A stretch of 64,000 bases of DNA, taken from positions 14,764 to 78,763 of the forward strand of contig SHYT01000008.1 in assembly GCA_009692665.1 (NCBI GenBank), written 5' to 3'. Source of the DNA: Dehalococcoidia bacterium. Lineage in GTDB: Bacteria; Chloroflexota; Dehalococcoidia; Lucifugimonadales; SHYT01. The translations under genes and the position numbers were made by a program. Below the pieces are notes generated by a model. The model did no database searches and was not told where the DNA came from. It was given only the letters and a program-made list of their open reading frames with translations. Positions 1 through 64,000 of the stretch are shown in pieces; position 1 is the first letter of the stretch; the number at the start of each line of letters is the position of its first letter.

Positions 1-1271
1 TGATTCCTGAGTGGAATGACCTCGTCTATCGGGGTTTGTGGAAAGAAGCCCTCGATCGTCTCCTGAAGACGAACAATTTCCCTGAGTTTACCGGGCGTGT
101 CTGCCCGGCCCCATGCGAAGGCTCCTGCGTGCTCGGCATCAATGAGGCACCAGTGGCGATCAAGACCATTGAACAGGAAATCATTGAAAAAGGCTTTGCC
201 GAGGGTTGGATCAGGCCCAATCCCCCGGCTGTTCGGAGCGGTAAGAAGGTCGCCGTTGTGGGCAGCGGGCCCGCGGGTCTCGCCGCCGCTGACCAGCTCA
301 ACCGTGCCGGCCATCTCGTGACCGTGTTCGAGCGGGCCGATCGGCCTGGCGGTCTGTTGATGTACGGCATTCCTAATATGAAGCTGGAAAAAAGGGCGGT
401 CGTGGAGCGCCGCCTTCGCCTCATGGAAGAGGAGGGCATCACCTTCCAATGCAACACTGAGGTTGGAAAGAGTTATCCAGCAGACAGGCTCTTAAAGGAA
501 TTCGATGCCGTCGTGCTCAGCACTGGCGCGACCAAGCCCCGTGACTTGCCGATAGATGGTCGCGGGCTTAAGGGCGTCTCTTACGCGGTGGACTTCCTGA
601 CGGCAAACACCAAATCTCTCCTGAATGAACACACCAACGGGGACTACATCAATGCCGGTGGCAAAGACGTCATTGTGATAGGCGGCGGCGACACCGGGAC
701 CGACTGCGTTGGAACCGTCATGCGGCACAATTGCAGGAGCCTCATCCAACTCGAAATCCTTCCTCAACCTCCCAATGAACGTCCAAGCGATAACCCCTGG
801 CCTCAATGGCCCCGCATCTATCGAATGGACTACGGCCAGGAAGAGGCGGCTGCCCGCTTCGGCGCGGACCCTCGGCGATACTTGGTTACCGCCAAGCGAT
901 TCATTGGTGATGAGCGCAGCAACCTTAGCGGCATTGAAATCGTCCGTGTAGAGTGGGCCAAGGACGCATCGGGTCGCCTCAACCCCGTGCCTGTCGCGGG
1001 TTCTGAACAAGTCCTGCCTGCTCAGCTGGTTTTCTTGGCCATGGGATTCCTGGGACCGGAAGATGCCGTGGCTGGCCAGCTCGGCGTCGCCCGTGACGAA
1101 CGCTCGAACTACAAGGCCGTCCACGGACGCTTCGCCACCAACATCCCAGGTGTCTTCGCCGCTGGCGATTGCCGTCGCGGCCAGAGCCTCGTCGTCTGGG
1201 CGATTAACGAAGGCCGGGGTGCAGCCCGAGAATGCGACCGCTTCCTGAGCGGCACGACCTCTCTTCCATAA
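1..1271 (+). CDS. gltD: Glutamate synthase small subunit / GltD-family NADPH oxidoreductase (5' end outside window)
   Basis: Frame is open from base 3 ([17 protein letters not shown]...), so the start lies left of the window. Shows the [17 protein letters not shown] Fe-S cysteine motif, the [14 protein letters not shown] dinucleotide-binding motif and C-terminal [16 protein letters not shown]. Stop TAA at 1269-1271. Confidence 0.9.
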
Positions 1272-1289
1272 AAGAGGCTGGGCTTTGGT

Positions 1290-2238
1290 GTGGGCGACTT
1301 CAATCCTATATGGCGGGATGAGGACTACGCTAAGAAGAGCCGCTTTGCCATGCTTACCGCTCCGCCTCTCTTTGTCTATTCCGTTGATCTTGCTGCAGAC
1401 ATTATCAGCGGGGGTGTCGACTCCTCACGCCTGAGCAATACATTTCGCTGTTCTATGCATCGGTGGACATGGAGTTCCACAAGACTATTTGGGTGGGTGA
1501 CCGGCTGTATGCGCAAACCACGCCGATCGACGTCGTTCGGAAGGATACTCAGTCTCTTGGTCCCGTGTGCTTTGTTGCAGGCCGGACCCAGTACATCAAC
1601 CAGCGCCATGAGGTGGTGGCCACGACTATCACGCAGTTTGCGCGTTTTGTGAACCCTGGCAAGGGTGTGCAGTACAACCGAGAAAGCAAAACAGGGGTGC
1701 CGGGGAATGAGGCGCCGGACCCCTTGGTATGGGAGCGCAAGGCTCGTGGTGGTCAGACCAGGCACTGGGAAGATGTGCATAAGGGGGGGAGCAGCTCCCG
1801 GACGTTAAGAAGGGCACTTTTACTCTCACAGAGATGTTCAATTTTAGTCTGTGTGTGCTATCCCCCAGTCGTCCAACGCGCAAAGCAATAGAGGAGGCTG
1901 GCACCATAGACTTTGGGGGTGGAGGCCGTGCTGATCCTGGCTATGCCCAGAGGAGCCGGGCGCAGCAAGGGCAGTTTGACTACGGCCCGCAGCGGGTGTG
2001 CTGGGTCAGCCAAGTGGTAACGGATTGGATGGGCGATAACGCTACGCTCAAGAAACTGAAAGTGGCAGTCCGCCATCCCAATATTGTGGGGGACACCAAC
2101 ACGGTGAAGCGCAAAGTCCGGAACACCTATGTTGAGAATAGTGAACATCTGGCCGATATTGAGGTGGCGAACAAAAACCAGTCTGGTCTCGGAACTGCCA
2201 TCGGCATCGCTACCGTTGCTTTGCCAAACAAAGCCTAA
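1290..2238 (+). pseudogene. Decayed MaoC-like double hot-dog hydratase gene (5'-truncated, split over three frames)
   Basis: ORFs 1290-1652, 1463-1891 and 1834-2238 lie in three different frames. Read in order they match the intact paralog at 36926-38014 ([16 protein letters not shown]~GDMNPLFLDPTYGAKS; VDMEFHKTIWVGDRL~VETEWHKPVKVGDRL; HWEDVHKG~YWEDVKEG; VVTDWMGDNATLKKLKV~VLTDWIGDEGWLRKLRV). The frame opens right at the gltD stop, so about 50 N-terminal residues are missing. The second shift maps to a G7 run at 1783-1789. Confidence 0.75.
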
Positions 2239-2403
2239 GGTGGCATAGCTCTAGCGTCTTGGAGAGGGCACACGTGTTGTGCTCTCCCCTTTTCTGGTGG
2301 TTCGCTTGCCAGTTGCTTATTGGCCACCTTTGGAAGTATCGTCCGCTAAGCGCTTTTGTGCTAGACTGCGCCACATTGGTAATTTCCTATGGACAAGAAA
2401 TAG

Positions 2404-3687
2404 ATGAGCGAGCCGGAGACCCAGCTTCCAGCCCCCAAGGCTGCTGAGCCCTCCCTTGTCAAACGCATCGGAGGGTCAGTCGGCAAAGCCGCGGAGTCCC
2501 TCCGATATCGGAACTTCCGCCTTCTCACGCTGGGCTCTCTGTCTCTGGGATACGGACAGTGGTTCCAGTCCATTGGTCTTATGTGGCTTGTGCTGACCAT
2601 GTCCCACTCGCCGGTTCTCTCTGTGAGCGTGGCGGCTTTGCGGGGTGTTCTTGCCATCGCTGTTTCGCCCGCAGGCGGATGGATCTCAGACCGGTACAAC
2701 AGGAAAGCGGTCGTCGCCTGGAGTACGGCTCTGGCGAGTGGGCAGGCCCTTATTCTCTGTGCCTTGGTACTGACGGGCCACGCCAACTATTGGGTAATCT
2801 ACGGGTTCACGGCGTTGGAAGGAATTTCTCAGGGTATCTATGGGCCAGCCCGGCAAGCTCTCGTATTCAGCGTCGTTCCCCGCGAGAGTTTGCCAAACGC
2901 AGTGGCTTTGAACTCCATGTCACAGAATCTTGCTCGAGTCACCGGGCCGGTCATAGCCGGTATGGTCATCGGTTTCTGGGGCAACGGATGGGTCTTTGCT
3001 CTGCTGGCCCTATCCAGGATCATCGCTTCTCTGTGGACTATGCAGATCAGCGCGGTAGCGCAGCAGCAGGCCAGCAAGCACGAGTCGGCGTGGGCCAGCA
3101 CCACGGCCGGATTCCGCTATGCCATCAAGGACAAGACCGTCGGCAGCGTCATCATTCTCCAGCTCATACTCTCCTTGCTCATCCTGCCATACGTGCAGCT
3201 GCTTCCGTTCTTCGCGGACGAGGTCTATCACCAGGGCGCGCAAGGGTACGGCATTCTGACTACATTTGTCGGATGGGGCTCCCTTGTTGGCCTGAGCACG
3301 CTGGTCTTTATCGGACGCGTGAAGCGAAAAGGCCTGCTTGCGCTGGGTACCCTCCTTGCCTACGCCATCTTCGTCATGGCTTTCTCCCGCTCAACGGTAT
3401 TCAGTCTCTCGATTGCCATTCTCGTCTGTGCTGGCTTTTCTCTATCAATCTTTATGGCTATGGAACAAACGCTACTCCAGCTCCTCACGCCAGACGATAT
3501 TCGGGGAAGAGTCTTTGCACTTTCACAAATGGGACAAGGCTTCCAACCGGTCGGCACCTTCCCTATGGCGTACGCAGCCGAGCAGATCGGCCTCGCCAAC
3601 GGGGTGACCGCGTTCATGGCCATGGCGGTTGTTGCTACCTTGGCAGTCGCGGCCTTTTCCTCCAAGTTGCGGGCAACCCGTGTATGA
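2404..3687 (+). CDS. MFS transporter
   Basis: 427 aa, hydrophobic multi-helix profile throughout. MFS motif-A-like GGWISDRYNRK loop after the second helix. ATG start. Confidence 0.85.
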   Translation: MSEPETQLPAPKAAEPSLVKRIGGSVGKAAESLRYRNFRLLTLGSLSLGYGQWFQSIGLMWLVLTMSHSPVLSVSVAALRGVLAIAVSPAGGWISDRYNRKAVVAWSTALASGQALILCALVLTGHANYWVIYGFTALEGISQGIYGPARQALVFSVVPRESLPNAVALNSMSQNLARVTGPVIAGMVIGFWGNGWVFALLALSRIIASLWTMQISAVAQQQASKHESAWASTTAGFRYAIKDKTVGSVIILQLILSLLILPYVQLLPFFADEVYHQGAQGYGILTTFVGWGSLVGLSTLVFIGRVKRKGLLALGTLLAYAIFVMAFSRSTVFSLSIAILVCAGFSLSIFMAMEQTLLQLLTPDDIRGRVFALSQMGQGFQPVGTFPMAYAAEQIGLANGVTAFMAMAVVATLAVAAFSSKLRATRV

Positions 3688-3716
3688 ACCGTAGCAGGCT
3701 GGGGTAGAGGTCGTAT

Positions 3717-4907
3717 ATGGTCGCGCCACTGGACGGCATCAAGGTTATTGATCTATCGCGCCTTGCTCCCGGCCCCTTTTGCACTATGATTCTTGGCGAC
3801 CTTGGCGCCGAGGTTCTTCGGGTCGAAGAGCCCGGTGGCGGAGCTATGGCGGCCTCTCGCCCTCGACAGGATCCAATTGCGATACGACGAGCGGCGGCAT
3901 TCAGTGCCGTTAACCGCAATAAGCGGAGTATTACCCTGAACCTCAAGCACCCAGAGGCGCGCACGGTGTTATACCAACTCTGTCAAGATGCCGACGTCTT
4001 TGTGGAAGGATATCGGCCTGGCGTCGTGAAGCGCCTTGGTTGCGATTACGAGACGCTCCATGCTATCAACCAGCGCCTGATTTACTGCTCGCTATCCGGC
4101 TACGGCCAGACTGGGCCGTACCAGGGTCTCGCCGGCCACGATATCAACTACATTTCCTTCGCTGGGATGCTGGGCCTCATGGGTCCTGCAGATGGTCCCC
4201 CAGCCATCCCCCTCAATATCGTCGCCGATATGGCAGGCGGGGGTATGCACGCAGCCATAAGCATCCTGGCTGCCCTCCTAGCGCGCGGTAAGACGAGCGA
4301 GGGGCAGTATGTGGACGCGGCCATGCTGGACGGTGTGTTCTCCATGCTGCAAAGTGTTACCTCCGCGTTCCTGTCAACGGGGCGCGTGCCCACCAGGGGC
4401 AGCGAGTCGCTCAGTGGTAGCCTGCCGCACTACAACGTGTATGAGTGCGCTGACGGCAAGTACCTGTCTGTGGCCGCGTTGGAGCCTGACTTCTGGCAAA
4501 CCCTGTGTACTGCCATGGGCCGTGAGGACTTCATTCCACACCAGGGCGACGAGGCACAGCGCACAGAGCAGTTCTCTTTCTTCCGCCGCACGTTCAAGAC
4601 GCGCACCCGTGATGCATGGTTTGACCTGCTCTCTAGGGCCGGCGACAGTGCGACGGCCAAAGTATTAAGCATGGATGAGGTGGTTACTGACCCACAGGTT
4701 CGTGCCCGTGGCCTCGTGGCCGAGGTCGGCGTCGTCAATGGCGAGACCGTCCGCCATCCCGGCATAGCGTACAAGCTTTCAGCCACGCCGGGGAGCGTCC
4801 GGAGCCTGGGTGTCCCGCGGGGCGAGCATACCGATGAGGTGCTTAAAGAGATGGGCTACTCGTCAGAGCGTGTGCGGGTGATGAGAGATCAGGGTGTAGT
4901 GGAATAG
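3717..4907 (+). CDS. Family III (CaiB/BaiF) CoA-transferase fold protein, alpha-methylacyl-CoA racemase-like
   Basis: N-terminal IKVIDLSRLAPGPFCTMILGDLGAEVLRVE and NRNKRSITLNLK are typical of the family. AGHDINYISFAGMLG resembles the GHDINY His region of alpha-methylacyl-CoA racemases. Confidence 0.8.
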   Translation: MVAPLDGIKVIDLSRLAPGPFCTMILGDLGAEVLRVEEPGGGAMAASRPRQDPIAIRRAAAFSAVNRNKRSITLNLKHPEARTVLYQLCQDADVFVEGYRPGVVKRLGCDYETLHAINQRLIYCSLSGYGQTGPYQGLAGHDINYISFAGMLGLMGPADGPPAIPLNIVADMAGGGMHAAISILAALLARGKTSEGQYVDAAMLDGVFSMLQSVTSAFLSTGRVPTRGSESLSGSLPHYNVYECADGKYLSVAALEPDFWQTLCTAMGREDFIPHQGDEAQRTEQFSFFRRTFKTRTRDAWFDLLSRAGDSATAKVLSMDEVVTDPQVRARGLVAEVGVVNGETVRHPGIAYKLSATPGSVRSLGVPRGEHTDEVLKEMGYSSERVRVMRDQGVVE

Positions 4908-5151
4908 CCACGGACGGGACGGGAATCACGCGTAGCAAGACTCCCCAGCGTTGCCCAACAAACCTCTCGGCTTCAGTTATATGGGCCATGTACTTGGTAT
5001 AAGCTGAAAAGTGAGGCATTCCGTGAACAAACTCAGTGCAATACAATCCATACCAATACCGCACGGAAATAGGCTGGCATGATCTGATTATTCCCGCACA
5101 ATTCTGAGCTTTTGTGATACGTTGCATATACTAATCGCTGGAGAGGGAAGT

Positions 5152-6162
5152 ATGCAGAAGACGACGAAGGGAAAATCTCGACAGAATGCCAAAGCTGTGG
5201 CGCCTCAATCACGCCGCGCTACTCCCCGAATCCCCAGCGAGGCTGAAGCGCGTGGCTATCTGAAAGACCTCAGCAACTGGGGTAGATGGGGCAAGGAAGA
5301 TACATTAGGTACTCTGAATCTTATCTCTCCCAAGAAGCGGGTGGACGCCTCGCGGCTGGTTAAGGAGGGGACGACAGTCAGCCTGGCCAGGCAGATCAAG
5401 AAGGAGACGGCGCCTGACATCACAACCCCCTTCCAACACTTCATGACTGGCACAGGCGAGTCGTTTGCTAATAAAAAAACTCCGCCAGGGTCTATGCAGG
5501 GGGCAGGTGACTTCTATGGCATTGCGTACCACGGGTATTACTACACCCACTTGGACGCGCACAGCCACGTTTTCTCTGACGGCAAGCTGTACAACGGAAT
5601 GCCTGCGGAGATGGTGACATCGCGGGGCGGCGCTGGCGCAGGCAGCGTTGAGGCCGCTCACAGTGGCGTGGTCACCCGCGGCGTGCTGCTAGATGTTCCA
5701 AAGATACGCGGAATCAAGTGGCTGGAGCCAGGTCAGGGCGTTTTCCCGGAAGACCTGGAAGCCGCTGAGAAAGCGGCTGGCGTGCGCGTAAGCGAAGGGG
5801 ACGCACTGCTGGTCAGGGTTGGACACTGGAAGAGGCGCACGGAGCTTGGCCCCTGGCCGTTGACTCAGGGCTGGGCCGGGCTACACGGCGCTTGTCTGCC
5901 CTGGCTTCGGGAACGCGGCGTGGCTTTGATAGGGAGTGACAGCGCCAATGACGTAGTCCCCAGTGGCTACCCTGGCTTCTCTCGCCCAATCCATGAAACA
6001 GGAATCGCCAAGATGGGCTTATGGCTCTTGGATGACTGCGATTTTGAAGAGCTCGTGGCCACTTGCGAGCGGCTGCGCCGATGGGAATTCCTTTTCAGCC
6101 TGGCGCCCCTCAGGGTCGTGAACGGCACCGGTTCTCCCGTAAATCCCCTTGCAATTTTCTAG
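5152..6162 (+). CDS. Cyclase-family (kynurenine formamidase-like) metal-dependent hydrolase
   Basis: NWGRWGKEDTLGTLN and a His/Asp cluster YHGYYYTHLDAHSH match the HxGTHxDxPxH-type cyclase motif. ATG 5152 follows GGAGAGGGA. The longest ORF starts at TTG 5122. Confidence 0.75.
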   Translation: MQKTTKGKSRQNAKAVAPQSRRATPRIPSEAEARGYLKDLSNWGRWGKEDTLGTLNLISPKKRVDASRLVKEGTTVSLARQIKKETAPDITTPFQHFMTGTGESFANKKTPPGSMQGAGDFYGIAYHGYYYTHLDAHSHVFSDGKLYNGMPAEMVTSRGGAGAGSVEAAHSGVVTRGVLLDVPKIRGIKWLEPGQGVFPEDLEAAEKAAGVRVSEGDALLVRVGHWKRRTELGPWPLTQGWAGLHGACLPWLRERGVALIGSDSANDVVPSGYPGFSRPIHETGIAKMGLWLLDDCDFEELVATCERLRRWEFLFSLAPLRVVNGTGSPVNPLAIF

Positions 6163-6230: not shown

Positions 6231-7439
6231 ATGAGCCAAAGTGACATCCTTTCCCACCTTCGCGTCCTGGATGTGAGCGACGGTGTTGCTGGGGCGCATT
6301 GCACCGCGTTACTGGCCAGCTTAGGCGCAGAAGTCATTAAGGTAGAATCCCCGCAGGGAGACCCCTCACGCCAAGTCGGGCCTTTCCCCAAAGATCTGCC
6401 ACACCCTGAGCGTAGCGCTCTGTTTCTTTATGAGAATGTCGGGAAATTTGGAATAACCTTGGATATGCATACCAAGGATGGTATCAGGGAATTTGCCCAA
6501 CTGGCGCAGCAATCTGATGTCATCGTAGAGAGTTTTGCGCCTGGCGCTCTCCAGCAGTTGGGGCTTGGATACGGGCTACTCGCACAGCACAATCCGCGGT
6601 TGGTGCTGTCATCTATCACGTGGTTTGGCCAGAGCGGCCCGTATCGGGACTGGGCAGGCGGGCCAATGGTCACCTTTGCCGCTGGTGGCCTTATGCGGCT
6701 CGCAGGCGAGCCAGGCCGGACACCGTTGCACCTGCCATCCTACGTACTGGAGCGCATTGTCGGTATCAGCGCTTTTACCGCTACGCTTGCCGCTGCGCAC
6801 GTCGCTGGGCTCACAGGCAAGGGACAAGAAGTCGATGTCTCGTTTGTTGAGACTGTGGCAAGCATCCACGAATTTACCGTTCCTGCTTATATCACCAAGG
6901 GGCAAATAGTCAACCGCGTCGGCAACTACGCCCTTTCCTGGTCAATCGTGCCCTGTAAAGACGGCTTTCTTGGCTTTAACGCCGTGTCCGCCAGCAATCG
7001 ATGGGACCGGCTATGTGAGCTGTTGGAAATGCCCGACCTGCGGACGGACCCTCGCTTTGCCGATAGCGGCGCGCGGAATCGCAACGCCGATGAGTTATTC
7101 GTCGTCCTTCTGGAATGGGCCAAGGACAAGCCTAAGGACGAGGTGTTCACCAGGGCGCAACGTTCAGGCCTTGCCATAGGAGTCGTGCAAGATGTGGATG
7201 AGGCTTTCGCCATGGAACAGTTGCGCGCCCGCGCGTTTTTTGTTCCTGTAACGCATCCAGAAGTAGGCACCCTTGAGTATCCAGGATTTCCTTTCCACGT
7301 AACGGATCCAACTACACCACACAACGCGGAACAGCACCAGGCCTCGGCACAGCCAATGGGCGGTCGGTTTGCCGAGCGACCCCTGAGAGCGCCTTTACTT
7401 GGTGAACATAATGCCCTTGTCTCCTCTCGATTGCGTTAA
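6231..7439 (+). CDS. Family III CoA-transferase (CaiB/BaiF)
   Basis: LRVLDVSDGVAGAHCTALLASLGAEVIKVESPQGDP N-terminus and overall length are typical of CoA_transf_3 proteins. Confidence 0.85.
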   Translation: MSQSDILSHLRVLDVSDGVAGAHCTALLASLGAEVIKVESPQGDPSRQVGPFPKDLPHPERSALFLYENVGKFGITLDMHTKDGIREFAQLAQQSDVIVESFAPGALQQLGLGYGLLAQHNPRLVLSSITWFGQSGPYRDWAGGPMVTFAAGGLMRLAGEPGRTPLHLPSYVLERIVGISAFTATLAAAHVAGLTGKGQEVDVSFVETVASIHEFTVPAYITKGQIVNRVGNYALSWSIVPCKDGFLGFNAVSASNRWDRLCELLEMPDLRTDPRFADSGARNRNADELFVVLLEWAKDKPKDEVFTRAQRSGLAIGVVQDVDEAFAMEQLRARAFFVPVTHPEVGTLEYPGFPFHVTDPTTPHNAEQHQASAQPMGGRFAERPLRAPLLGEHNALVSSRLR

Positions 7440-7514
7440 GCATCAGTCAATCAAGGGAAAACCAGGTAGGGACGGTTCGCACGAGCCAGCGCGCCAGGAT
7501 AAAGGAGATGTGTG

Positions 7515-10307: not shown

Positions 10308-10381
10308 CCTCCGCGGTTTTTGGCATGGGATATTCCAAAACGCGCTATGAGCTAGTGTCGTAGCACAAAAAGGGGTTCTAG

Positions 10382-50609: not shown

Positions 50610-50614
50610 ACGTG

Positions 50615-54447: not shown

Positions 54448-54524
54448 GAGACGATAACGTTGTTGAGACTATGCAATTTCTTTGTCGTGTGTGAGCGTTC
54501 ATCGGCAAGAGACGATAACGTTGT
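54448..54524 (+). repeat. Two perfect 16-nt direct repeats GAGACGATAACGTTGT
   Basis: Copies at 54448-54463 and 54509-54524, 61 nt start to start. They lie between the receiver remnant and the zinc-ribbon ORF. Confidence 0.7.
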
Positions 54525-54556
54525 CGGCCCACAAGAAGTAGTGTATGCTATTGCCC

Positions 54557-55006: not shown

Positions 55007-55414
55007 AGTCTGCTTGGCACGTGCGGGGAACATACAGCGTATGACTGGGCTTTTGCTGTCAGGCCGCCTGCCGCAACTTTACCGCAAGGTCGGCTTTGAA
55101 AAGACGAAGCAGCGAGCCTTGTGGCGGAATTGCTAGAAGGCAAAGGTATCCAGATGCCGCCCCAACAGCAAGTCAGTACCACGTTCAAGAAGGCACCACG
55201 GGCAAAGGAACCAAAGGTGGAAACCTTAGCAATGCCGCTCGACGGGTAGCCGGACTTTTGCATCAGACCTCCGACATTTGCATCAAGACCGACTTATTCA
55301 GCAAAGCCCACGATACGCAAACATTCGTCATACTCAAGGCACTCCACAACGAAATCCTTCAGTGAATACAATGGGTAGTGCTATGGCTAATCGAACGTTA
55401 GGTTAGGGGGGAAC

Positions 55415-56338: not shown

Positions 56339-57376
56339 TTAAGGGGTTGCAGCGAGTTCTTTGCGCAGGATTGGGGCGACGCGGGTGCCGAGCAGCTCAA
56401 TAGCTTGCATTAGCTTGGGATGAGGCAAAGAGGCGGCGTTCATTTGAAACGTGATGCGGGAAATGCCACCCAGCGCTGCACTATGTCGCAGGATTTTCGC
56501 CGCCACCACTTCAGCGGTGCCGATCAGCAGGGCGCCGTCCGGCCTTAGTTGAGCGTCGAACTGGGCGCGGGTGACTGGCGACCACCCACGCTCCTTCCCG
56601 ATAGATGTGAAGGCGCGGGCGTACCCCGGAAAGAAGTCTTCTGCGGCCTCCTGCGCCGTCGCGGCCACATAGCCCAGGGCGTGGACGCCGACCTTCAATT
56701 GATCGGGTGAGAACCCGGCCAGCTTGCCAGCCTCCCTGTAGAGATCGACAAGCGGCCGGAAGCGCCGCGTTTCGCCGCCGATGATGGCGACCATCAGTGG
56801 AAGGCCGAGCTCGCCGGCGCGCAGGAATGACTGTGGGCTCCCGCCAACACCCAGCCAAATGGGCAAGGAGTCCTGCAATGGCCTGGGGTAGACGCCTTGT
56901 CCGGTCAGCGCGGCCCGATGTTTGCTGGACCAGTGAACATGCTCGTTCTCGCGGATATTGAGCAGCAGATCAAGCTTATCCGCAAAGAGAGAGTCGTAGT
57001 CTTCCAGCTTAAAGCCAAACAGGGGGAATGAGTCGGTGAACGACCCGCGGCCCACCACCATCTCCGCCCGGCCCTGAGAAAGCAGGTCAAGGGTGGCGAA
57101 GTTCTGAAAGACCCGTACGGGATCGGCTGAACTCAGGACGGTTACGGCGCTGGTCAGACGGATGCGGTGGGTGCGCGCCGCCGCAGCTCCAAGAATAACC
57201 GTAGGAGCCGAATCGAGGAACTCCTTGCGATGGTGTTCACCGACGCCAAATACGTCCAGCCCGACCTGGTCTGCATATTCGATTTGTTCCACCAAGTTAC
57301 GCAGACGGTCGGACGGACTCACCGCCAAACCCTGGCCCTCGTAGGCCGCTGCGAAGCTATCAACACCAATTTGCAT
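56339..57376 (-). CDS. Luciferase-like (LLM) flavin-dependent oxidoreductase
   Basis: MQIGVDSF..., GLDVFGVGEHH and DLLSQGRAEMVVGRGSF. ATG 57376 follows GGGAGAAGG; the longest ORF starts at 57418. Confidence 0.85.
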   Translation of the reverse strand: MQIGVDSFAAAYEGQGLAVSPSDRLRNLVEQIEYADQVGLDVFGVGEHHRKEFLDSAPTVILGAAAARTHRIRLTSAVTVLSSADPVRVFQNFATLDLLSQGRAEMVVGRGSFTDSFPLFGFKLEDYDSLFADKLDLLLNIRENEHVHWSSKHRAALTGQGVYPRPLQDSLPIWLGVGGSPQSFLRAGELGLPLMVAIIGGETRRFRPLVDLYREAGKLAGFSPDQLKVGVHALGYVAATAQEAAEDFFPGYARAFTSIGKERGWSPVTRAQFDAQLRPDGALLIGTAEVVAAKILRHSAALGGISRITFQMNAASLPHPKLMQAIELLGTRVAPILRKELAATP

Positions 57377-57770
57377 GGGCCTTCTCCCTTGGAAAGATAT
57401 TGTTTGGGAAGTGGTCAACTTCTTGTGCCTGGCACCATTATTTGTGACACACGTACAAAAGAGAAGTACGCACGTTCATGTGCAGCAGGCACACTCGTTC
57501 CTGTCCCCACGTAATCCGCTCCTGCTTCCGCTTTGCTTGGAGACCCCTTCCTAAAACCTAAGAAATGGTAGCGAACGGGCCTTGCCGTTGCTAGTTGCTT
57601 TCTTTGGATCAGCTTGCCCCTGCGCGGGTACCGCATTCCTTTTAGGGAGCAGATCATAACGCTTCGGCATGGGGGTTGGGTGGGCCGGCCGGAACTGTGG
57701 CACCGCAGCCGTGGGTTACGCGGTACAATTGCACGCGTAATAAAGCGGCGCGGCAGAGATTGGGGGCGCA

Positions 57771-58916
57771 ATGCCTGACATCATGTTGACCGAAGAAGAG
57801 TTGATGCTCAAAAGCGCGATCCGCGACTTTGCGGAACGGGAAGTCGCGCCGAGGGCGATGGAGATTGACCAGGAAGAGAGGTTCTCGTTTGAGAATTTCC
57901 ACGCCATGGGGAAGCTGGGACTGTTTGGGATGACGCTGGACCCCAAGTACGGCGGCAGCGCGGGCGGCATCAAGCCGGTGGTTGTGGTGGCGGAGGAGCT
58001 GGCGAGGGTATGCGCGTCCACGTCGAACGCGTTTGTGGTGCAGACCGGGCTGGCGGGCTATCCCATGAATCAATTTGGCAATGAGAAGCAGAAAGCACGC
58101 TGGCTGCCGGGGCTGATATCGGGCGAGAAGGTGGGCGCGTACTGCCTGACGGAGCCGGGAAACGGCAGCGACGCGGCGGCGGCATCCACGATTGCCAAGA
58201 AGGTCAGCGGTGGGTACGTGCTGAACGGGAGCAAGACGTTCATCACGCACGGGACCATCGGCGACGTGCTCATTGTATTTGCCACCATGGACATGGCGCT
58301 AAAGCACCGGGGCTTTGTGGCGCTGGTGCTTGAGAAGGGCATGAAGGGGCTGACAACGCAGAAGATTACCGGCAAGATGGGCATCCGCTCGTCCGACACA
58401 GGCACGATGTTTTTTGACAACGTGGAAGTGCCGGAGGAGAACCGGCTGGGCGAGGAAGGCCAGGGCTTCCGGATTGCGATGCAGACGCTGGACAACAGCC
58501 GCGTGGGCATTGCGGCGCAGGCGCTGGGCATTGCGCAGGGGTCGCTGGACGAGGCGCTTAAGTACGCCAAGCAGCGGCGCGCGTTTGGGCAGGCCATTGC
58601 CGACTTCCAGGCCATCCAGTTCTACCTGGCGGACATGGCGATGCGCGTGGAGGCGTCCCGGCTGTTGACCTACCAGGCGGCGGCACTCAAGGACGCAGGC
58701 CAGCCGTACGTGAAGCAGGCGTCCATGGCGAAGGCATATGCATCCGAGGCGGCAGTGTTCTGCGCGGACCGGGCGGTGCAAATTTTCGGCGGGTACGGAT
58801 ACATTCGCGAGTCTAAGGTGGAGCGGTTTTACCGGGATGCGCGCATCACGCCGATTTATGAGGGGACAAGCGAGATCCAGCGGATTGTGATTGCGCGGCA
58901 CCTGTTGCAGGAGTAG
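57771..58916 (+). CDS. Acyl-CoA dehydrogenase (canonical short/medium-chain type)
   Basis: CLTEPGNGSDAAA and the C-terminal PIYEGTSEIQRIVIARHLL, which carries the catalytic Glu motif. Confidence 0.9.
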   Translation: MPDIMLTEEELMLKSAIRDFAEREVAPRAMEIDQEERFSFENFHAMGKLGLFGMTLDPKYGGSAGGIKPVVVVAEELARVCASTSNAFVVQTGLAGYPMNQFGNEKQKARWLPGLISGEKVGAYCLTEPGNGSDAAAASTIAKKVSGGYVLNGSKTFITHGTIGDVLIVFATMDMALKHRGFVALVLEKGMKGLTTQKITGKMGIRSSDTGTMFFDNVEVPEENRLGEEGQGFRIAMQTLDNSRVGIAAQALGIAQGSLDEALKYAKQRRAFGQAIADFQAIQFYLADMAMRVEASRLLTYQAAALKDAGQPYVKQASMAKAYASEAAVFCADRAVQIFGGYGYIRESKVERFYRDARITPIYEGTSEIQRIVIARHLLQE

Positions 58917-58924
58917 AGACGTCG

Positions 58925-59752
58925 ATGCTCGACAGTCTTAACCTTGACGGCAAAACCATTATCGTCACCGGCGGAGGCACCGGCCTGGGGCGCGAAATTG
59001 TGCGGGCGCTGGCAAGGGCTGGCGCTGACGTCGTGATCACCGCGCGGCGGCAGGGACCGATTGATGCGGCTGCAGATGAAGTGCGGGCGCTCGGCAGGCG
59101 GGCGCTGGCGGTTTCGGCTGACCTGACGGTATCGGCGCAGGTGAATGCCATGGTGCAGCGGGCGATTGGCGAGTTCGGGAAAGTCGACGTGCTGGTGAAC
59201 AACGCGGGCATCGTGCGCGAGGAATCGAAGCCGCTGTGGGACGTGACGGATGCGGAGTGGCGGGAGGTGCTGGACGGCAACCTGACCAGCGTCTTCTACT
59301 GCTCCCGCGCGGTCATCAAGCACATGGTAGACCGTGGCAAGGGGCGCATCGTCAACATGTCGTCGGGGTTTGGGCTGCGCGCCAAACGGGACAACTACCT
59401 GTACGGCACGAGTAAGGCAGGAATCATTCAGTTCACGCGCATTCTGGCGCTCACCTATGGCGGGCGTGGAGTCACAAGCGCGTGCATAGTGCCGGGGAAC
59501 ATGGTAACGGAAGCCGGGGAGGAGTTCCGCGGAAGAGCGGGCTTCACGGCGGAGACGGCGTCGCTAGCCAATCCGTACATTCCTATAGGACGGGCGGGCG
59601 CCGCGTCAGAAATTGGGCCGCTAGCGGTGTACCTGGCGTCGGACGCTTCCGAGTACCTGAACGGGGAGATTTTCACAGCGGACGGCGGGAGCCTGGCGGG
59701 CGGGTACGCCCCGACAGGGCACGCGCCGGTGATTCCGCTGCCCGAAAAATAG
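58925..59752 (+). CDS. Short-chain dehydrogenase/reductase (SDR)
   Basis: KTIIVTGGGTGLGREI, NNAG and YGTSKAG. Confidence 0.85.
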   Translation: MLDSLNLDGKTIIVTGGGTGLGREIVRALARAGADVVITARRQGPIDAAADEVRALGRRALAVSADLTVSAQVNAMVQRAIGEFGKVDVLVNNAGIVREESKPLWDVTDAEWREVLDGNLTSVFYCSRAVIKHMVDRGKGRIVNMSSGFGLRAKRDNYLYGTSKAGIIQFTRILALTYGGRGVTSACIVPGNMVTEAGEEFRGRAGFTAETASLANPYIPIGRAGAASEIGPLAVYLASDASEYLNGEIFTADGGSLAGGYAPTGHAPVIPLPEK

Positions 59753-59790: not shown

Positions 59791-60552
59791 ATGCCCATTC
59801 CGGCAGAATGGACTCTTAGGGGAAAAGTGGTGCTGCTGGCCGCCGGCAACCGAGGGTGGGACGCCACCCTGGCAGAAGGTCTGGCGCAGGCGGGCGCGGA
59901 GGTCGCGATTGTCGGCGCGTCTGACGCGCAGTTGAAGGCGGCGGTGGACGCAGCGGCCAAGCACGGGCATCGCGCGGAGGCGTTCGAGGCTGACCTGACG
60001 CAGCCGGACGAAGTGCGCGAGGCGGTGCTGTGGGCCGAGGGCTCGTTTGGGAAGATTGACGCGCTGGTGAACGACACGCAGGTGGAGTTCGCGAAGCCGA
60101 TGGTGGACATAACCCCTGAGGAGTTTGACCGGGTCATGGCGCAGAACGTGCGGAGTGTGTTCCTGTTGTGCCAGGAGGTGGGGCGGCACATGCTCAAGCG
60201 AGGCGGTGGGCAGATCGTGAACATCACGTCAGGGCTGGCGGAGCGCGGACTGGGCAACGGCGCGGCGTACTGCTCGACCATGGGAGCGCTCCAGCAGCTC
60301 ACGCAGGCGCTGGCGTTGGAGTGGGGCAAACAGAACATCCGCGTGAACGGCATCGGGCCGGGATGGTTCTCGCATGAGGACACATCGCTGGAGGAACAGC
60401 GCAAGGAACTGTACGTGCGGTACCTGCCGATGCGGCGGCTGGGGCATCCCCGGGAACTGGTGCCGCTGCTGGTCTACCTGTGCTCGGACGCGTGCGCCTA
60501 CACGACGGGGCAGACGCTGTATCTGGACGGTGGCGCACTGAGCCATGCGTAG
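59791..60552 (+). CDS. Short-chain dehydrogenase/reductase (SDR), atypical glycine motif
   Basis: ATG 59791 follows GGAGGA. KVVLLAAGNRGWDATLA replaces TGxxxGxG. YCSTMGAL and GQTLYLDGG match the SDR core. The longest ORF (59482) overlaps the upstream SDR. Confidence 0.75.
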   Translation: MPIPAEWTLRGKVVLLAAGNRGWDATLAEGLAQAGAEVAIVGASDAQLKAAVDAAAKHGHRAEAFEADLTQPDEVREAVLWAEGSFGKIDALVNDTQVEFAKPMVDITPEEFDRVMAQNVRSVFLLCQEVGRHMLKRGGGQIVNITSGLAERGLGNGAAYCSTMGALQQLTQALALEWGKQNIRVNGIGPGWFSHEDTSLEEQRKELYVRYLPMRRLGHPRELVPLLVYLCSDACAYTTGQTLYLDGGALSHA

Positions 60553-60576: not shown

Positions 60577-61005
60577 ATGAAGACAATTTCGTATAAGACT
60601 CGGACATTTTCATGGATTGTATTCATGATCGCAGGCATGGTCGTTGCTTTAAGTTGCAGCCAACCGAAGGCAGTTGTGTCCGCGGCTTCGGCACCAACTC
60701 CTCCGCCCTCGCGTCTAGCCATCGCCCAAGCCACAATCTTAGGCCGATGGCAAATGATAAATGGGACGCAATTTTATAGCTTTTACCGGGACGGCACGAT
60801 GGACCTGGTTTTCAATAACGCTTTCGGAACAGCCATAACCAATCCAGGTACTTATCAACTCATTGACGAGAGCCATATTCGCACCCAAACAAGGGATGCG
60901 TTTAACTTTGCTACGGCGGCCACTTACGAACTGAAGTTTGGCACAGGAACGGCAACGTTCGTGGATGCCCAAGGGCGCGCTGTCCAATATCAAAAGGCTC
61001 AATGA
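60577..61005 (+). CDS. Small hypothetical lipoprotein
   Basis: Signal peptide with lipobox VVALSC. Beta-rich Thr/Gly/Asn body. Visibly more AT-rich than the neighbouring genes. Confidence 0.55.
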   Translation: MKTISYKTRTFSWIVFMIAGMVVALSCSQPKAVVSAASAPTPPPSRLAIAQATILGRWQMINGTQFYSFYRDGTMDLVFNNAFGTAITNPGTYQLIDESHIRTQTRDAFNFATAATYELKFGTGTATFVDAQGRAVQYQKAQ

Positions 61006-61145: not shown

Positions 61146-62570
61146 ATGCCTGAGATAAAGAGCGCCCACTTCAAAGAAGCCGCCCGGAAGGTTGTTGCTG
61201 ACCCGCACCAGCAGGCGTCGCTGCAGAAGCTGGAGCGGTTTCGGACAGAGCGCATCCACGCCATTGCGGAGACCGGGCAGGCGCAGTGGGAAGTCATGCA
61301 GGCGCAGGCGCGGGCCATCAAGTGGCACACGCTAGAGCACCTGGACACCTACCTCGACCAGCTTGCGACGAAGGTGGAGAGGGCAGGCGGGCACGTCTGC
61401 TTCGCTAAGACCGCGCAAGAGGCGAACGACTACGTGGTGAAGCTGGCGCTTGACCGCGGCGTGAAGAACGTCGTCAAGGGCAAGAGCATGGTGTCCGAGG
61501 AGATGGGCATCGCGGACGAACTGGAGCGCAACGGCATCCGCCGCGTGGAGACCGACCTGGGCGAGTACATCCAGCAGCTTGCCCACGAGCCGCCGTACCA
61601 CATCATCGCGCCCGCCGTGCACAAGTCGAAAGAAGAGGTCAGCGACCTCTTTGTCCGCGAGCTGGGCGTGCCGCGCGTGACGGACATTCCGGCGCTGGCG
61701 GGGCAAGCGCGGGAAATACTGCGCGGGGAGTTCCTGAAGGCAGACATGGGCATGACCGGAGCGAACTTCGCTGTCGCGGAGACCGGCACCATGGCCATCA
61801 CCACCAACGAGGGCAACGGCCGCATGTGCTCCACCGTGCCGCGTATCCACGTGGTGACCATGGGCATGGAGCGCGTCATTCCCACGTTCAAAGACCTGGA
61901 CATTTTTCTGAAGCTGCTCACCCGCTCGGCGACGGGACAGCGGATTACCAGCTACGTGTCCATGTTCTCGGGGCCGCGCCGAACGGACGAGGAGGACGGG
62001 CCGGATGAGTTCCACCTGGTGATTCTGGACAACGGCCGCTCCAAGCTTCTAGCTGACCCCGAGATGAGGGAATCGCTGCTGTGCATCCGTTGCGGAGCAT
62101 GCTTGAACGTTTGCCCCGTGTACAACAAAGTCGGCGGGCATACGTACGGGTGGGTGTACCCCGGGCCAATCGGCGCGGTGGTCAGCCCGGTTCTCGTGGG
62201 CATCCCGAAAGCGAAAGATTTGCCGTTTGCCTCCACGCTCTGCGGTGCGTGCCGGGAGGCGTGCCCGCTCCAAATCAACCTACCGCGCATGCTGCTGACG
62301 CTGCGCGCCAAGGTGACCCAGGGTTCGATGGAAGACCGTGCGCCGTCCACGACGGAGACGCTGGCGATTAGGGGCTGGCAGTCGGCGATGAAGTCGAGCC
62401 GGATGTATGGGTTGGCGAGCAAGGCGGCGAGGATTTTGCAGAAGCCGCTGGTGAGCCACGGGTACATCCACAACCTGCCGGGGCCGCTAGGCGCGTGGAC
62501 CAAGTCGCGCGATTTCCCGCCGGTGGCAGACAAGCCCTTCCGGGATCGGTGGAAAGATTTGCACCCTTAA
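61146..62570 (+). CDS. lutB: Lactate utilization protein B-type iron-sulfur protein (LutB/LldF)
   Basis: LUD-type N-terminal region and 4Fe-4S motifs CIRCGACLNVCP and CGACREACP. Confidence 0.85.
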   Translation: MPEIKSAHFKEAARKVVADPHQQASLQKLERFRTERIHAIAETGQAQWEVMQAQARAIKWHTLEHLDTYLDQLATKVERAGGHVCFAKTAQEANDYVVKLALDRGVKNVVKGKSMVSEEMGIADELERNGIRRVETDLGEYIQQLAHEPPYHIIAPAVHKSKEEVSDLFVRELGVPRVTDIPALAGQAREILRGEFLKADMGMTGANFAVAETGTMAITTNEGNGRMCSTVPRIHVVTMGMERVIPTFKDLDIFLKLLTRSATGQRITSYVSMFSGPRRTDEEDGPDEFHLVILDNGRSKLLADPEMRESLLCIRCGACLNVCPVYNKVGGHTYGWVYPGPIGAVVSPVLVGIPKAKDLPFASTLCGACREACPLQINLPRMLLTLRAKVTQGSMEDRAPSTTETLAIRGWQSAMKSSRMYGLASKAARILQKPLVSHGYIHNLPGPLGAWTKSRDFPPVADKPFRDRWKDLHP

Positions 62571-62586
62571 CACCCGTACCCCGTAG

Positions 62587-62607
62587 GGGCAGGTTTGAAA
62601 CCTGCCC
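62587..62607 (+). repeat. REP-like hairpin GGGCAGGTT-TGA-AACCTGCCC upstream of the Y1-transposase-like gene
   Basis: Perfect 9-bp stem with a 3-nt loop, 17 nt after the lutB stop and 23 nt before ATG 62630. Confidence 0.6.
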
Positions 62608-62629
62608 TAACCTGCGGTGAGGAAACGCC

Positions 62630-63145
62630 ATGCCATATGATCCAGACAGACATCATAGACAAACCATCCGGTTGCAAGAATATGATTACACGCAACCGGG
62701 GGCATCTTTCGTCACTGTATGTACGCATAATCGGGGCAATTTGTTTGGCGCGGTGAGCAAGGGCGAGATGCGGCCGAATGCGTTTGGGAAGGTGGTGGAG
62801 GATGTGTGGAAGCAATTGCCAGCCCATTCCCCAAACGTTGTTCTGGACGCATTCGTTGTCATGCCCAATGACACATCGCGACCAACAGATAAACTCCGCA
62901 TTAACGTGACACCGGGTTCCCTGGGCGCCATTGTGCGTTCATTCAAATCCGCGTCGACCAAACAGATCAATATCCTCCGCAACACACCGGGCGCTCCCGT
63001 CTGGCAACGCAACTACTATGAACACGTTGTGCGGACGGAGGAGGATTTGGAATCCACCCGCAACTACGTCCTGGGCAATCCTGCCAAATGGGACGAGGAC
63101 CCGGACAACCTGCTCGTCGGTGGTGCGCATGTCCGCGCGCGATGA
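62630..63145 (+). CDS. REP-associated/IS200-like Y1 transposase homolog (RAYT-like) with degenerate HUH motif
   Basis: RQTIRLQEYDYTQPGASFVTVCTHNRGNLFG, LGAIVRSFKSASTKQIN and PVWQRNYYEHVVR (catalytic Tyr region) match the family. The expected VMPNH-x-H site reads VMPNDTS. The last 17 nt overlap the lutC start. Confidence 0.75.
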   Translation: MPYDPDRHHRQTIRLQEYDYTQPGASFVTVCTHNRGNLFGAVSKGEMRPNAFGKVVEDVWKQLPAHSPNVVLDAFVVMPNDTSRPTDKLRINVTPGSLGAIVRSFKSASTKQINILRNTPGAPVWQRNYYEHVVRTEEDLESTRNYVLGNPAKWDEDPDNLLVGGAHVRAR

Positions 63146-63857
63146 GTTCCTGAAATCTGTCCGCGACGCCATTCAGGCTGGCTCTGGCGCACACCACGAG
63201 GTATCGTCGTCCTCCGTCACGTTCGGTGGGCCAACGGACATCCGCGCTCGCGCTGAGGATGCCCGCCGCATCGCCGATGCCAAACGTCCGCAAGCCATCG
63301 AGACATTGGTGAAGATGGCACAACTTCAGGCGTGGAACCTGATCCGCGTACCGTCTCGCGACGGCGCCGCGCAGGCCGTCGCCGCAATAGCAGTGGAGCT
63401 GGGCGCAAAGCTGGCGGTGCGCACGCAGCACCCGGTGTTCACAGGAATGCCGCTGGACAAGGCGCTGGCGGACAAGGGCGTGCGCGTGCAGGCAATGAAT
63501 ATGGCTGAGGCGCCACCCGCTATGCTTCGCAAGACCGCCGCTGCTGCGGACATGGGAGTGACCGGCGTGGACTGGGTGGTGGCTGAAACGGCTACCGCTG
63601 TGCTGATTTCAGAACGGGGCAAGGCGCGCACCGCATCGCTGCTGCCGCCTGCGCACATCGCCGTTGTCGAAGCCAATCAGGTGGTGCCCACGCTGGCGGA
63701 GGCCCTGGCATTGGTGCAGGGATATGTCGCCGAGAAGGGGTGGGCAGGGCACTACGTGAACCTCATCAGCGGGCCAAGCCGCACCGCGGACATTGAGCAG
63801 ACCATCGTCATTGGGGTGCACGGGCCTGGCAAGGTGTATCTGGTGCTCATTGGGTAA
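63129..63857 (+). CDS. lutC: Lactate utilization protein C (LUD domain)
   Basis: MSARDEFLKSVRDAI..., ADMGVTGVDWVVAETATAVL and ISGPSRTADIEQTIVIGVHGP. ATG 63129; the longest ORF (62931) runs in an alternate frame of the transposase-like gene. Confidence 0.8.
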   Translation: MSARDEFLKSVRDAIQAGSGAHHEVSSSSVTFGGPTDIRARAEDARRIADAKRPQAIETLVKMAQLQAWNLIRVPSRDGAAQAVAAIAVELGAKLAVRTQHPVFTGMPLDKALADKGVRVQAMNMAEAPPAMLRKTAAAADMGVTGVDWVVAETATAVLISERGKARTASLLPPAHIAVVEANQVVPTLAEALALVQGYVAEKGWAGHYVNLISGPSRTADIEQTIVIGVHGPGKVYLVLIG

Positions 63858-63878
63858 CAGAGCGTTTGGGAAAACCTT

Positions 63879-64000
63879 ATGAAGGCTATTGATGTTCACG
63901 TTCATCCACCACGGCAGCCCGGTCTTGCGCCGGACATCTCCTTCCAGCACGTGGGGCGATATTTCCGGCTAAAACAGCTGCCCACCAATGTGCAGGAGAT
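63879..64000 (+). CDS. Amidohydrolase-family protein (3' end outside window)
   Basis: MKAIDVHVHPP... is the metal-binding start typical of amidohydrolase-2 proteins. Only 40 codons are visible. Confidence 0.4.
   Translation, partial: MKAIDVHVHPPRQPGLAPDISFQHVGRYFRLKQLPTNVQE

Follow-up and report, generated by a model that had tools for sequence, protein, structure and literature searches.

A probable catabolic, paralogue-rich stretch of a Dehalococcoidia genome with luciferase-like oxidoreductases of mixed type and an Ltp2-like/DUF35 pair

The window analysed here is a 64,000-nucleotide stretch of contig SHYT01000008.1 (assembly GCA_009692665.1, a Dehalococcoidia bacterium), rich in luciferase-like oxidoreductases (LLMs), CoA-transferases, acyl-CoA dehydrogenases (ACADs), hydratases, short-chain dehydrogenases/reductases (SDRs) and transporters, and holding a thiolase-like protein next to a DUF35 protein. 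The window is probably a catabolic, paralogue-rich part of a SAR202-type Dehalococcoidia genome, in which known genome-wide expansions are locally concentrated and which would serve as a toolbox for acids beyond ordinary β-oxidation. By its gene families the mosaic of about 25 transcription units, which lie on both strands (defined by strand and a 150-nt gap rule), looks suited to carboxylic acids whose breakdown ordinary β-oxidation cannot complete. Three points are new here: the LLMs belong to more than one cofactor class, the thiolase-like protein is of Ltp2 type, and it is repeatedly associated with LLMs.

The gene set consisted of greedy open reading frame (ORF) calls (about 54 genes), and families were assigned by a Pfam scan of all ORFs in the window. 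An initial annotation of the same DNA had read its paralogues as a system for oxygenation, ring or branch opening, CoA activation and modified β-oxidation of bulky or alicyclic acids, and its counts were reproduced: six LLMs (PF00296), four CoA-transferases (three CaiB-type, PF02515, and one of the acetyl-CoA hydrolase/transferase family), four crotonases, three ACADs and three SDRs. The double hot-dog hydratase (start at 36911, earlier 36926) and the pair of DUF35 and thiolase-like proteins were present, and the family assignments of the cyclase-family protein (start at 5122, earlier 5152), the α/β hydrolase with a Cys elbow and the amidohydrolase were confirmed. Also found were four major facilitator superfamily (MFS) transporters, three orphan solute-binding protein (SBP) lipoproteins of the SBP_bac_5 family, all with lipoboxes and Pro/Ala/Thr-rich linkers, and two large, one medium and one small subunit of molybdenum (Mo) hydroxylases. 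LLMs made up 6 of the 54 genes (11%), against a top genome-wide LLM fraction of 4% reported for SAR202 (binomial P = 0.02).

Gene densities were compared with those of 67 loci (1.40 Mb) flanking homologues of one of the LLMs (LLM1, listed below) in related genomes, mostly Dehalococcoidia metagenome-assembled genomes (MAGs), plus some genomes of Entotheonella/Tectimicrobiota and of other Chloroflexota. The counts per 64 kb were as follows.

Additional LLMs: expected 1.5, found 5.
CaiB genes: expected 0.7, found 3.
MFS genes: expected 0.55, found 4.
SBP genes: expected 0.5, found 3.
Crotonases: expected 0.05, found 4.
ACADs: expected 0, found 3.

LLM, CaiB, MFS and SBP genes were 3-7 times commoner in the window than in these control loci, which are a biased sample of non-independent loci. 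The direction is clear: the window is a local hotspot in an already enriched genome type, and what sets it apart is how densely β-oxidation-type genes lie in it.

The features of the window are listed below (assigned by Pfam; family accessions and other evidence in brackets).

3-1271 (+): glutamate synthase small subunit, cut at its 5' end (TIGR01317, 672 bits against a cut-off of 447.7; Pyr_redox_2/Fer4_20).
1272-2238 (+): second double hot-dog (MaoC-like) hydratase gene, split over three frames (tblastn).
2404-3687 (+): MFS transporter 1 (PF05977/PF07690).
3717-4907 (+): CaiB-type (family III) CoA-transferase a (PF02515, 343 bits).
5122-6162 (+): cyclase-family putative metal hydrolase (PF04199).
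6231-7439 (+): CaiB-type CoA-transferase b, CT3b (PF02515).
7512-8822 (+): CaiB-type CoA-transferase c, CT3c (PF02515).
9048-10307 (+): LLM1, 419 aa (PF00296).
10382-12262 (+): SBP1, orphan family-5 solute-binding lipoprotein (PF00496; lipobox and Pro/Ala/Thr-rich linker).
12538-13398 (-): LLM2 (PF00296; TIGR03856).
13813-15848 (+): GFO/IDH/MocA dehydrogenase, then, after a 59-nt gap, crotonase ECH1 (15090-15848).
16029-17282 (-): MFS transporter 2 (PF07690).
17490-18374 (+): crotonase ECH2 (PF00378; generic by NCBIfam).
18807-19505 (-): stand-alone FNR-type reductase, 232 aa (PF00970 and PF00175).
19681-22146 and 23264-25588 (+): xanthine-dehydrogenase-family Mo-binding large subunits MoL1 and MoL2 (PF02738/PF20256/PF01315).
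25713-29075 (+): SBP2 (orphan SBP lipoprotein), then LLM3 (27807-29075).
29148-29987 (-): crotonase ECH3.
30051-30623 (-): YfcE-type phosphoesterase.
30641-31138 (-): DUF35 protein, 165 aa.
31150-32391 (-): Ltp2-like thiolase-fold protein (best PDB match 6OK1).
32685-36017 (+): SDR1 (32685-33530), methyltransferase and MFS transporter 3.
36911-38014 (+): fused double hot-dog (MaoC-type) hydratase (PF13452 and PF01575).
38344-38793 (-): TetR-family regulator (PF00440).
39122-40438 (+): acetyl-CoA hydrolase/transferase-family CoA-transferase.
40508-41530 (+): LLM4 (PF00296).
41756-42718 (+): crotonase ECH4.
Within 39122-46053 (+): SBP3, between ECH4 and LLM5.
44998-46053 (+): LLM5 (PF00296; TIGR03619).
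46200-47387 and 47419-48576 (+): ACAD1 and ACAD2, 31 nt apart.
48722-51106 (+): Mo-hydroxylase FAD (medium) and 2Fe-2S (small) subunits, ThiS/MoaD-like protein and PadR regulator.
52462-53871 (+): MFS transporter 4 (PF07690).
55415-56290 (+): α/β hydrolase with a Cys nucleophile elbow (PF00561).
56339-57418 (-): LLM6 (PF00296; TIGR03858).
57771-58916 (+): ACAD3, canonical (motifs).
58925-59752 and 59791-60552 (+): SDR2 (canonical) and SDR3 (degenerate) (motifs).
61146-64000 (+): LutB, a small ORF, a LutC-like protein and the start of an Amidohydro_2 gene (63879 onward).

The proteins of the window are deposited as NCBI MSP78901-MSP78940 ('MAG: Dehalococcoidia bacterium', contig of 89,190 bp), and the same DNA is also present in short contigs (ENA ERZ1305449, Logan SRR8561391). 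The genes have a GC content of 52-62% and a GC3 typically of 0.55-0.85. The glutamate synthase subunit is a housekeeping protein and marks the left edge of the catabolic stretch. A second assembly of this DNA gives the product of the last gene, cut by the window end, as a 279-aa Amidohydro_2 protein (PF04909), and lutA follows the gene outside the window in the ENA assembly. No tRNA or Rfam-family RNA gene was detected in the window by tRNA and Rfam scans, and no rRNA or marker gene lies in it. A scan of GTDB species representatives with LLM1 gave 80 loci, with top matches of 55-66% identity that were nearly all from Dehalococcoidia/Chloroflexota MAGs; among them were 'SAR202 cluster bacterium bin22' (57% identity) and sponge-derived bins, and Entotheonella/Tectimicrobiota relatives came next at about 45% identity. 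The LLM1 family comprises at least 7,083 clusters at 90% identity (E ≤ 1e-20), with an identity plateau at 57-61%.

Pairs of proteins from the same family were mostly old (22-35% identity; LLM pairs mostly 22-33%). The only closer pairs were LLM1/LLM3 (84%), SBP1/SBP3 (72%), MoL1/MoL2 (57%) and LLM4/LLM5 (48%), and the DNA repeats found were just these four. LLM genes adjoin orphan family-5 SBP lipoprotein genes three times (9048-12262, 25713-29075 and 40508-46053), in different arrangements. An LLM1-type gene beside an SBP gene was also seen in loci L041-L047, of which L042 carries four tandem SBPs. Segmental duplication was considered as the origin of the LLM-SBP pairs and rejected; LLM1/LLM3 and SBP1/SBP3 are alike but differently arranged.

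By family scores and solved relatives the LLMs are heterogeneous. LLM2, with 302 bits, cleared the curated threshold (243.7) of the F420-dependent class TIGR03856, and LLM5 scored just above that of TIGR03619, the F420-associated Rv2161c family (169.8 against 166.9 bits), with LLM4 just under the same cut-off (161.8 bits). The solved relatives of LLM4 and LLM5 were mixed, with the monooxygenase RslO1 as the best and the F420-dependent Mer and hydroxymycolate dehydrogenase besides. LLM6 passed TIGR03858, the Atu2307/2I7G monooxygenase family (495 against 462 bits), and matched PDB 2I7G with E = 8e-117. LLM1 and LLM3 reached no NCBIfam family cut-off, and their sequence matches in the PDB were exclusively flavin mononucleotide (FMN) enzymes (luciferases, 2I7G, MsuD, SfnG and YtnJ). 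An AlphaFold (AF2) model of LLM1 (42-sequence alignment, pLDDT 72, pTM 0.78) was searched with Foldseek, and its top 50 PDB matches were all FMN/O2-dependent LLMs. The type II Baeyer-Villiger enzyme 3,6-diketocamphane monooxygenase (DKCMO) ranked 6-10 among them (20% identity, TM 0.57-0.66); it was not among the phmmer PDB matches of LLM1 at E ≤ 1e-5. The PGAP label of LLM1, LLM3, LLM4 and LLM5 is 'flavin-dependent'. On these scores and matches LLM1, LLM3 and LLM6 group with FMN/O2 enzymes, and LLM2 and LLM5 fall in F420-class families, with LLM4 borderline, a split of about three to three.

With DKCMO (4UWM/5AEC) LLM1 has in common the TIM-barrel fold of the LLMs and a set of structural neighbours made up entirely of FMN/O2 enzymes, and a putative reductase is encoded nearby by a small gene of its own; unlike DKCMO, LLM1 has about 60 extra residues and is only about 20% identical to it. 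The reductase is the FNR-type protein at 18807-19505, which is Fre/LuxG-like in size and domain architecture and a candidate flavin reductase for two-component LLMs, although its scores for Fre (70.6 bits) and LuxG (68 bits) were both far under cut-off.

The protein that appeared to be a thiolase is, from its motifs and relatives, Ltp2-type and not a thiolase. Trimmed to 413 aa, it had as best PDB match the steroid side-chain aldolase Ltp2 of Thermomonospora curvata (TcLtp2; 6OK1, E = 1.9e-63, 218 bits), against 79 bits (E = 3e-21) for the benzoylsuccinyl-CoA thiolase BbsB. In TcLtp2, which is without the thiolase cysteines, Tyr294 (in the motif YDHF) serves as the base, with Tyr344 acting as the acid (Rolfe et al., 2025; PMC12329534). 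The protein of the window has GGGSSSE at the nucleophile site (no Cys), YDAF and EGYSHG; both catalytic tyrosines are kept, and the His of YDHF is replaced by Ala. The Cys-less site, YDAF and EGYSHG were invariant in 59 full-length metagenomic homologues. The family has at least 534 relatives at E ≤ 1e-30 (HMMER, 1.84 billion representatives, 50%-identity library). Among the best 150 of these the first Tyr was near-universal and the second was present in 92, and the third motif position was A in 34, C in 31, H in 11 and N in 10. This position is variable enough to indicate a family much broader than steroid aldolases, and the sequences describe a broad, largely uncharacterised radiation that is not steroid-specific. 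YDAF as the marker of a distinct clade was rejected as a strong claim, the third position varying freely in the 150 representatives.

The gene for the DUF35 protein, a Cys4 ribbon, begins 11 nt past the stop of the Ltp2-like gene. Both belong to an operon-like minus-strand unit (29148-32391) with the phosphoesterase and ECH3, the gaps being 11-72 nt. The conservation of this neighbourhood was examined in 40 metagenome contigs, each 8 kb or longer, that carry a 55-71% identical Ltp2-like gene. DUF35 was immediately downstream in 35 of the 40, and at least one LLM lay within 10 kb in 22. About nine contigs showed the order SDR | ECH, acetyl-CoA-transferase-family gene, ACAD, [LLM], Ltp2-like, DUF35 ... 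ECH, LLM (confirmed by Pfam in L086). In six (L096, L101, L112, L114, L120 and L160) a CT3b/CT3c pair stood beside DUF35, and a low-GC Tara contig (L082) keeps the window order of Ltp2-like, DUF35 and phosphoesterase (Metallophos). These neighbourhoods, recurring in unrelated contigs, support a tie of the Ltp2-like/DUF35 pair to LLMs, crotonases, ACADs and CoA-transferases as sub-modules. The neighbourhood is common to SAR202-type Dehalococcoidia and soil-type metagenome contigs. A different sub-module was seen around LLM1-type genes, where a cyclase-family homologue (51-53% identity) and an SDR recur at 3-5 kb in eight Dehalococcoidia loci.

The Ltp2-like family contains a close subfamily (about 57-71% identical) inside its broad radiation, and from this subfamily and its neighbourhood with LLMs, crotonases, ACADs and CoA-transferases we derive a tentative reading, on balance doubtful, in which the Ltp2-like/DUF35 pair would be the retro-aldolase of a widespread 'de-branching' route. 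Aldol cleavage to a ketone would rescue the β-oxidation of ring-attached or β-branched acyl-CoAs, and the ketone would then go to neighbouring LLMs, for either an FMN-type Baeyer-Villiger oxygenation or an F420-dependent ketoreduction.

The two adjacent ACADs resemble heteromeric enzymes. The best solved relatives of ACAD1 were the steroid ACAD subunits Tcur3483 and ChsE4 (4x28_A), with 204 and 199 bits against 157 for the next, and those of ACAD2 were the partner subunits Tcur3481 and ChsE5 (4x28_D). ACAD1 and ACAD3 carry the FAD-contacting motif (S/T)EPGxGSD; ACAD2 reads AVGTDHGRLD, and its lack of the FAD motif fits an α2β2 enzyme with two FAD. ACAD1/ACAD2 is thus a predicted α2β2 heteromer in which the second subunit is without the FAD motif. 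In NCBIfam the best matches were PimC for ACAD1 (280 bits, cut-off 624) and PimD for ACAD2 (215 bits, cut-off 653). The pair shares with PimC/PimD, the pimeloyl-CoA dehydrogenase of Rhodopseudomonas palustris, the same large-then-small gene order, and differs from it in scores far below the equivalog cut-offs.

In the double hot-dog hydratase at 36911-38014 the C-terminal half retains the Asp/His motif, and the best PDB matches (ChsH1/ChsH2 and HadB) were weak, as was its likeness to HadAB. This intact paralogue matched the split gene at 1272-2238 in frames 1, 3 and 2 in order by tblastn, and the split gene is either a pseudogene or an assembly frameshift. SDR3 starts 38 nt past the canonical SDR2 and is without TGxxxGxG, NNAG and the Lys of YxxxK; by these losses it is probably a non-catalytic partner subunit of SDR2. 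SDR3 as a homologue of BbsC was rejected, its best relatives being generic gluconate or FabG-type SDRs, and specific crotonase roles (BadI, EchA19/20 and similar) were rejected on NCBIfam scores far under cut-off.

One of the CoA-transferases had been taken for an α-methylacyl-CoA-racemase-like protein. This was not borne out: the NCBIfam and PDB top matches of all three CaiB-type proteins were CoA-transferases (for CoA-transferase a, all NCBIfam matches below cut-off), and no racemase was among the PDB matches of CT3b at E ≤ 1e-20. CT3b matched both subunits of benzylsuccinate CoA-transferase (9fn0_A and 9fn0_B), and the adjacent CT3b and CT3c possibly form a heteromer. Among the putative hydrolases, the cyclase-family protein had the uncharacterised 5ibz as its only PDB relative, and the α/β hydrolase, with the elbow G-G-C-I-G, weakly matched 3-oxoadipate enol-lactonase.

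Between the genes of the two Mo-hydroxylase large subunits lies a gap of 1.1 kb, and both proteins scored below cut-off for all NCBIfam equivalogs; the medium and small subunits (48722-50459) are encoded 23 kb away. The gene of a ThiS/MoaD-like β-grasp protein follows that of the small subunit. In contig L109 a ThiS-MoL-CoxS-CoxM set is contiguous (278-4500), beside an Ltp2-like/DUF35 pair.

Some further sequences had no Pfam match. Two ORFs (60577-61005 and 62630-63145) lie in or beside lutB/lutC and were both also called in the independent ENA assembly; the first carries a lipoprotein signal (ALSC). The 1.5 kb at 53871-55415 hold a very basic 153-aa ORF with a Zn-ribbon-like segment (CPVCG...C). 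The gaps at 22147-23263 and 53872-55414 were checked for hidden genes and pseudogenes, and no similarity to window proteins or fetched loci was found. A 32-nt sequence, CCCTTGCTTCACACC[T/A]CTCGCGGCGAAATACT, occurs at 22564-22595 (+) and, inverted, at 53939-53970 (-), that is, in two of the largest Pfam-less gaps. The copies are identical at 33 of 34 positions over the extended match, none was expected in 100 shuffles, and the sequence is not palindromic. It was found in none of the 161 fetched loci, and could be a candidate promoter-like (TTGCTT-17-AATACT) or operator element.

The proposal of oxygenation, ring opening, CoA activation and β-oxidation is thus partly supported: the gene families, the SAR202 precedent and a likeness to the mycobacterial igr (cholesterol side-chain) locus speak for it, and its racemase, its parallel with the bbs (benzylsuccinate) set, a steroid assignment and a uniform class of LLMs are not supported. 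Several observations weigh against a functional toolbox. About 25 transcription units mean that the region is not one operon. Co-regulation had been regarded as decisive for the proposal; the units are not co-transcribed, and on the positive side sub-modules recur in other genomes. The parts that resemble igr are spread over three distinct units (29-32 kb, 37-38 kb and 46-49 kb), gene order around LLM1-type genes is poorly conserved, and the window encodes neither an ABC permease nor an ATPase to go with the three SBPs. Half of the LLMs may, by family class, not be oxygenases, and sequence and fold cannot separate Baeyer-Villiger from other LLM chemistries at the level of DKCMO (about 20% identity, TM about 0.6). 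Nearly all specific NCBIfam equivalogs were below cut-off, so that functions are given at family level only, and the bias of the density control belongs on the same side.

Four other explanations were weighed. It is unlikely that most of the LLMs are reductases or dehydrogenases that use F420 and do not oxygenate, which would mean redox tailoring and β-oxidation with no oxygen insertion or Baeyer-Villiger ring opening. Clustering with F420 reductases had been named as a result that would speak against the oxygenation proposal, and it was found for LLM2 (TIGR03856) and LLM5 (TIGR03619), with LLM4 5 bits short of the latter; PDB matches of LLM5 include Mer and hydroxymycolate dehydrogenase, and Saw et al. 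(2020; PMC6946804) put the share of F420 enzymes among SAR202 'FMNO' annotations at about 28%. It was not found for LLM1/LLM3 and LLM6, which match only FMN/O2 enzymes in sequence and fold; the best solved relative of LLM4/LLM5 is a monooxygenase, a Fre-type reductase gene lies in the window, and PGAP calls four of the six 'flavin-dependent'. It is also quite unlikely that the genes have no functional connection and stand together only because such families pervade the entire genome. The number of units on both strands, the weak synteny around LLM1-type genes and the up to 114 LLMs in SAR202 genomes (Saw et al., 2020; PMC6946804) would fit this; the window is nevertheless enriched over a SAR202-type background, most strongly in crotonases and ACADs, and its sub-clusters recur in distant genomes.

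A true sterol or steroid side-chain locus of the igr/Chs type, with ACAD1-ACAD2 as ChsE-type enzyme, the double hot-dog as ChsH-type hydratase and the Ltp2-like/DUF35 pair as C17 aldolase, is very unlikely. The resemblance to igr (ChsE1-E2, ChsH1-H2 and Ltp2; the TcLtp2-ChsH2(DUF35) complex is 6OK1) had been noted initially, and sequence comparison supports it for the Ltp2-type protein and the ACAD pair. Shared are the Cys-less thiolase fold with both tyrosines and a Cys4 DUF35 partner, the adjacent ACADs with one FAD-motif-less subunit and a MaoC-type double hot-dog. Best solved relatives are TcLtp2, Tcur3483/Tcur3481 and ChsE4/ChsE5, and weakly ChsH1/ChsH2; the top NCBIfam match of ECH1 is EchA19 (below cut-off), and sterol oxidation in SAR202 has been proposed (Landry et al., 2017; PMC5395668). 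The steroid assignment, the single operon and the DUF35 fusion do not carry over: the DUF35 protein is free-standing, and the hydratase is a weakly similar single fused polypeptide 5 kb away and without a DUF35 domain. YDAF stands for YDHF, at a position variable across the 150 representatives; soil-type metagenome contigs often carry homologues of about 60% identity; and the ACAD pair is equally PimCD-like, NCBIfam ranking it as PimC/PimD. No P450 (cyp125), Rieske/KshA, KstD, Hsa ring-degradation or glycyl-radical genes were found by Pfam scans of the window, and the 9,10-seco steroid degraders detected in a survey of metagenomes were all Actinobacteria or Proteobacteria. The remaining alternative, a bbs-like β-oxidation of fumarate adducts or succinyl-substituted acids (CT3b/CT3c as BbsEF, an ACAD as BbsG, a crotonase as BbsH, SDR2/SDR3 as BbsCD, DUF35 and the thiolase-like protein as BbsAB), is highly improbable. 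The matches of CT3b to both benzylsuccinate CoA-transferase subunits, the adjacent canonical and degenerate SDRs and the detectable BbsB relationship point to it, and the parallel fails at the thiolase step, where the nucleophilic Cys is lacking and Ltp2 is far closer than BbsB (218 against 79 bits); moreover, SDR3 has generic best relatives, the components are scattered and no glycyl-radical enzyme is encoded in the window.

The preferred reading, a local concentration of SAR202-type expansions, has published precedents for each of the expanded families. Five SAR202 single amplified genomes contained 152 'FMN/F420-dependent monooxygenases', prominent CaiB/BaiF CoA-transferases and SDRs, 129 MFS1 and 28 carbon monoxide dehydrogenase (CODH)/xanthine dehydrogenase (XDH)-family proteins and β-oxidation genes, and this was taken to mean that recalcitrant alicyclic matter is oxidised (Landry et al., 2017; PMC5395668). 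This work had been cited for the window from the start, accurately, and the same families were found here. In 122 genomes up to 114 LLMs per genome were counted, at most 4% of genes, and COG0747 SBPs were among the co-expanded families (Saw et al., 2020; PMC6946804). Since the same expansions are already published for SAR202, the phenomenon is known and the window is a further example in a deposited, annotated MAG. The window and SAR202 group III share a Dehalococcoidia-type organism, deeply diverged COG2141/PF00296 'FMNO' paralogues, CaiB/BaiF CoA-transferases, SDRs, MFS1, CODH/XDH-family proteins and COG0747 SBPs, and the proposed logic, in which oxygenation precedes a CoA-dependent breakdown of recalcitrant alicyclic compounds. 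They differ in that the window is one 64-kb locus, with LLM and CaiB genes 3-4 times and MFS genes about 7 times denser than in comparable Dehalococcoidia loci and with unusually many β-oxidation genes. The SAR202 likeness of the MAG rests on the LLM1 relatives, which include sponge-associated MAGs, and on gene families.

From the family assignments we infer the following reaction steps and substrates. Lipoprotein SBPs or MFS carriers would capture the substrates, which would be activated without ATP by CaiB-type or acetyl-CoA-transferase-type CoA-transferases. The α2β2 ACAD would desaturate the acyl-CoA, and the MaoC double hot-dog or a crotonase would hydrate it to a β-hydroxyacyl-CoA. Where the β-hydroxyl is tertiary, at a ring-attached or β-branched carbon, the Ltp2-like/DUF35 pair may carry out a retro-aldol cleavage to a ketone and a short acyl-CoA. 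The FMN-type LLMs (LLM1, LLM3 and LLM6), with the Fre-like reductase, might oxygenate the ketone, possibly in Baeyer-Villiger fashion; alternatively, F420-type LLMs may reduce or oxidise it, LLM2 and probably LLM4/LLM5 being more likely ketone/alcohol or ene oxidoreductases than oxygenases. A resulting ester or lactone could be opened by the cyclase-family protein, the Cys α/β hydrolase or the Amidohydro_2 protein, and SDR, GFO and Mo-hydroxylase enzymes would re-oxidise the products for the next round.

The dark ocean and sponges are rich in SAR202 Chloroflexota, which are proposed oxidisers of recalcitrant dissolved organic matter; to our knowledge, no substrate has been established for any of the enzyme families expanded in them. 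As a phenomenon the window brings nothing new, and the locus provides a compact, testable gene set: the Ltp2-like aldolase with DUF35, a heteromeric ACAD, FMN- and F420-type LLMs side by side, and candidate ester or lactone hydrolases. It also calls for caution: a good part of the proteins tallied as 'monooxygenases' in genomes of this kind may be reductases that depend on F420. If true, the de-branching route would give the SAR202 LLM expansion a defined upstream source of ketones.

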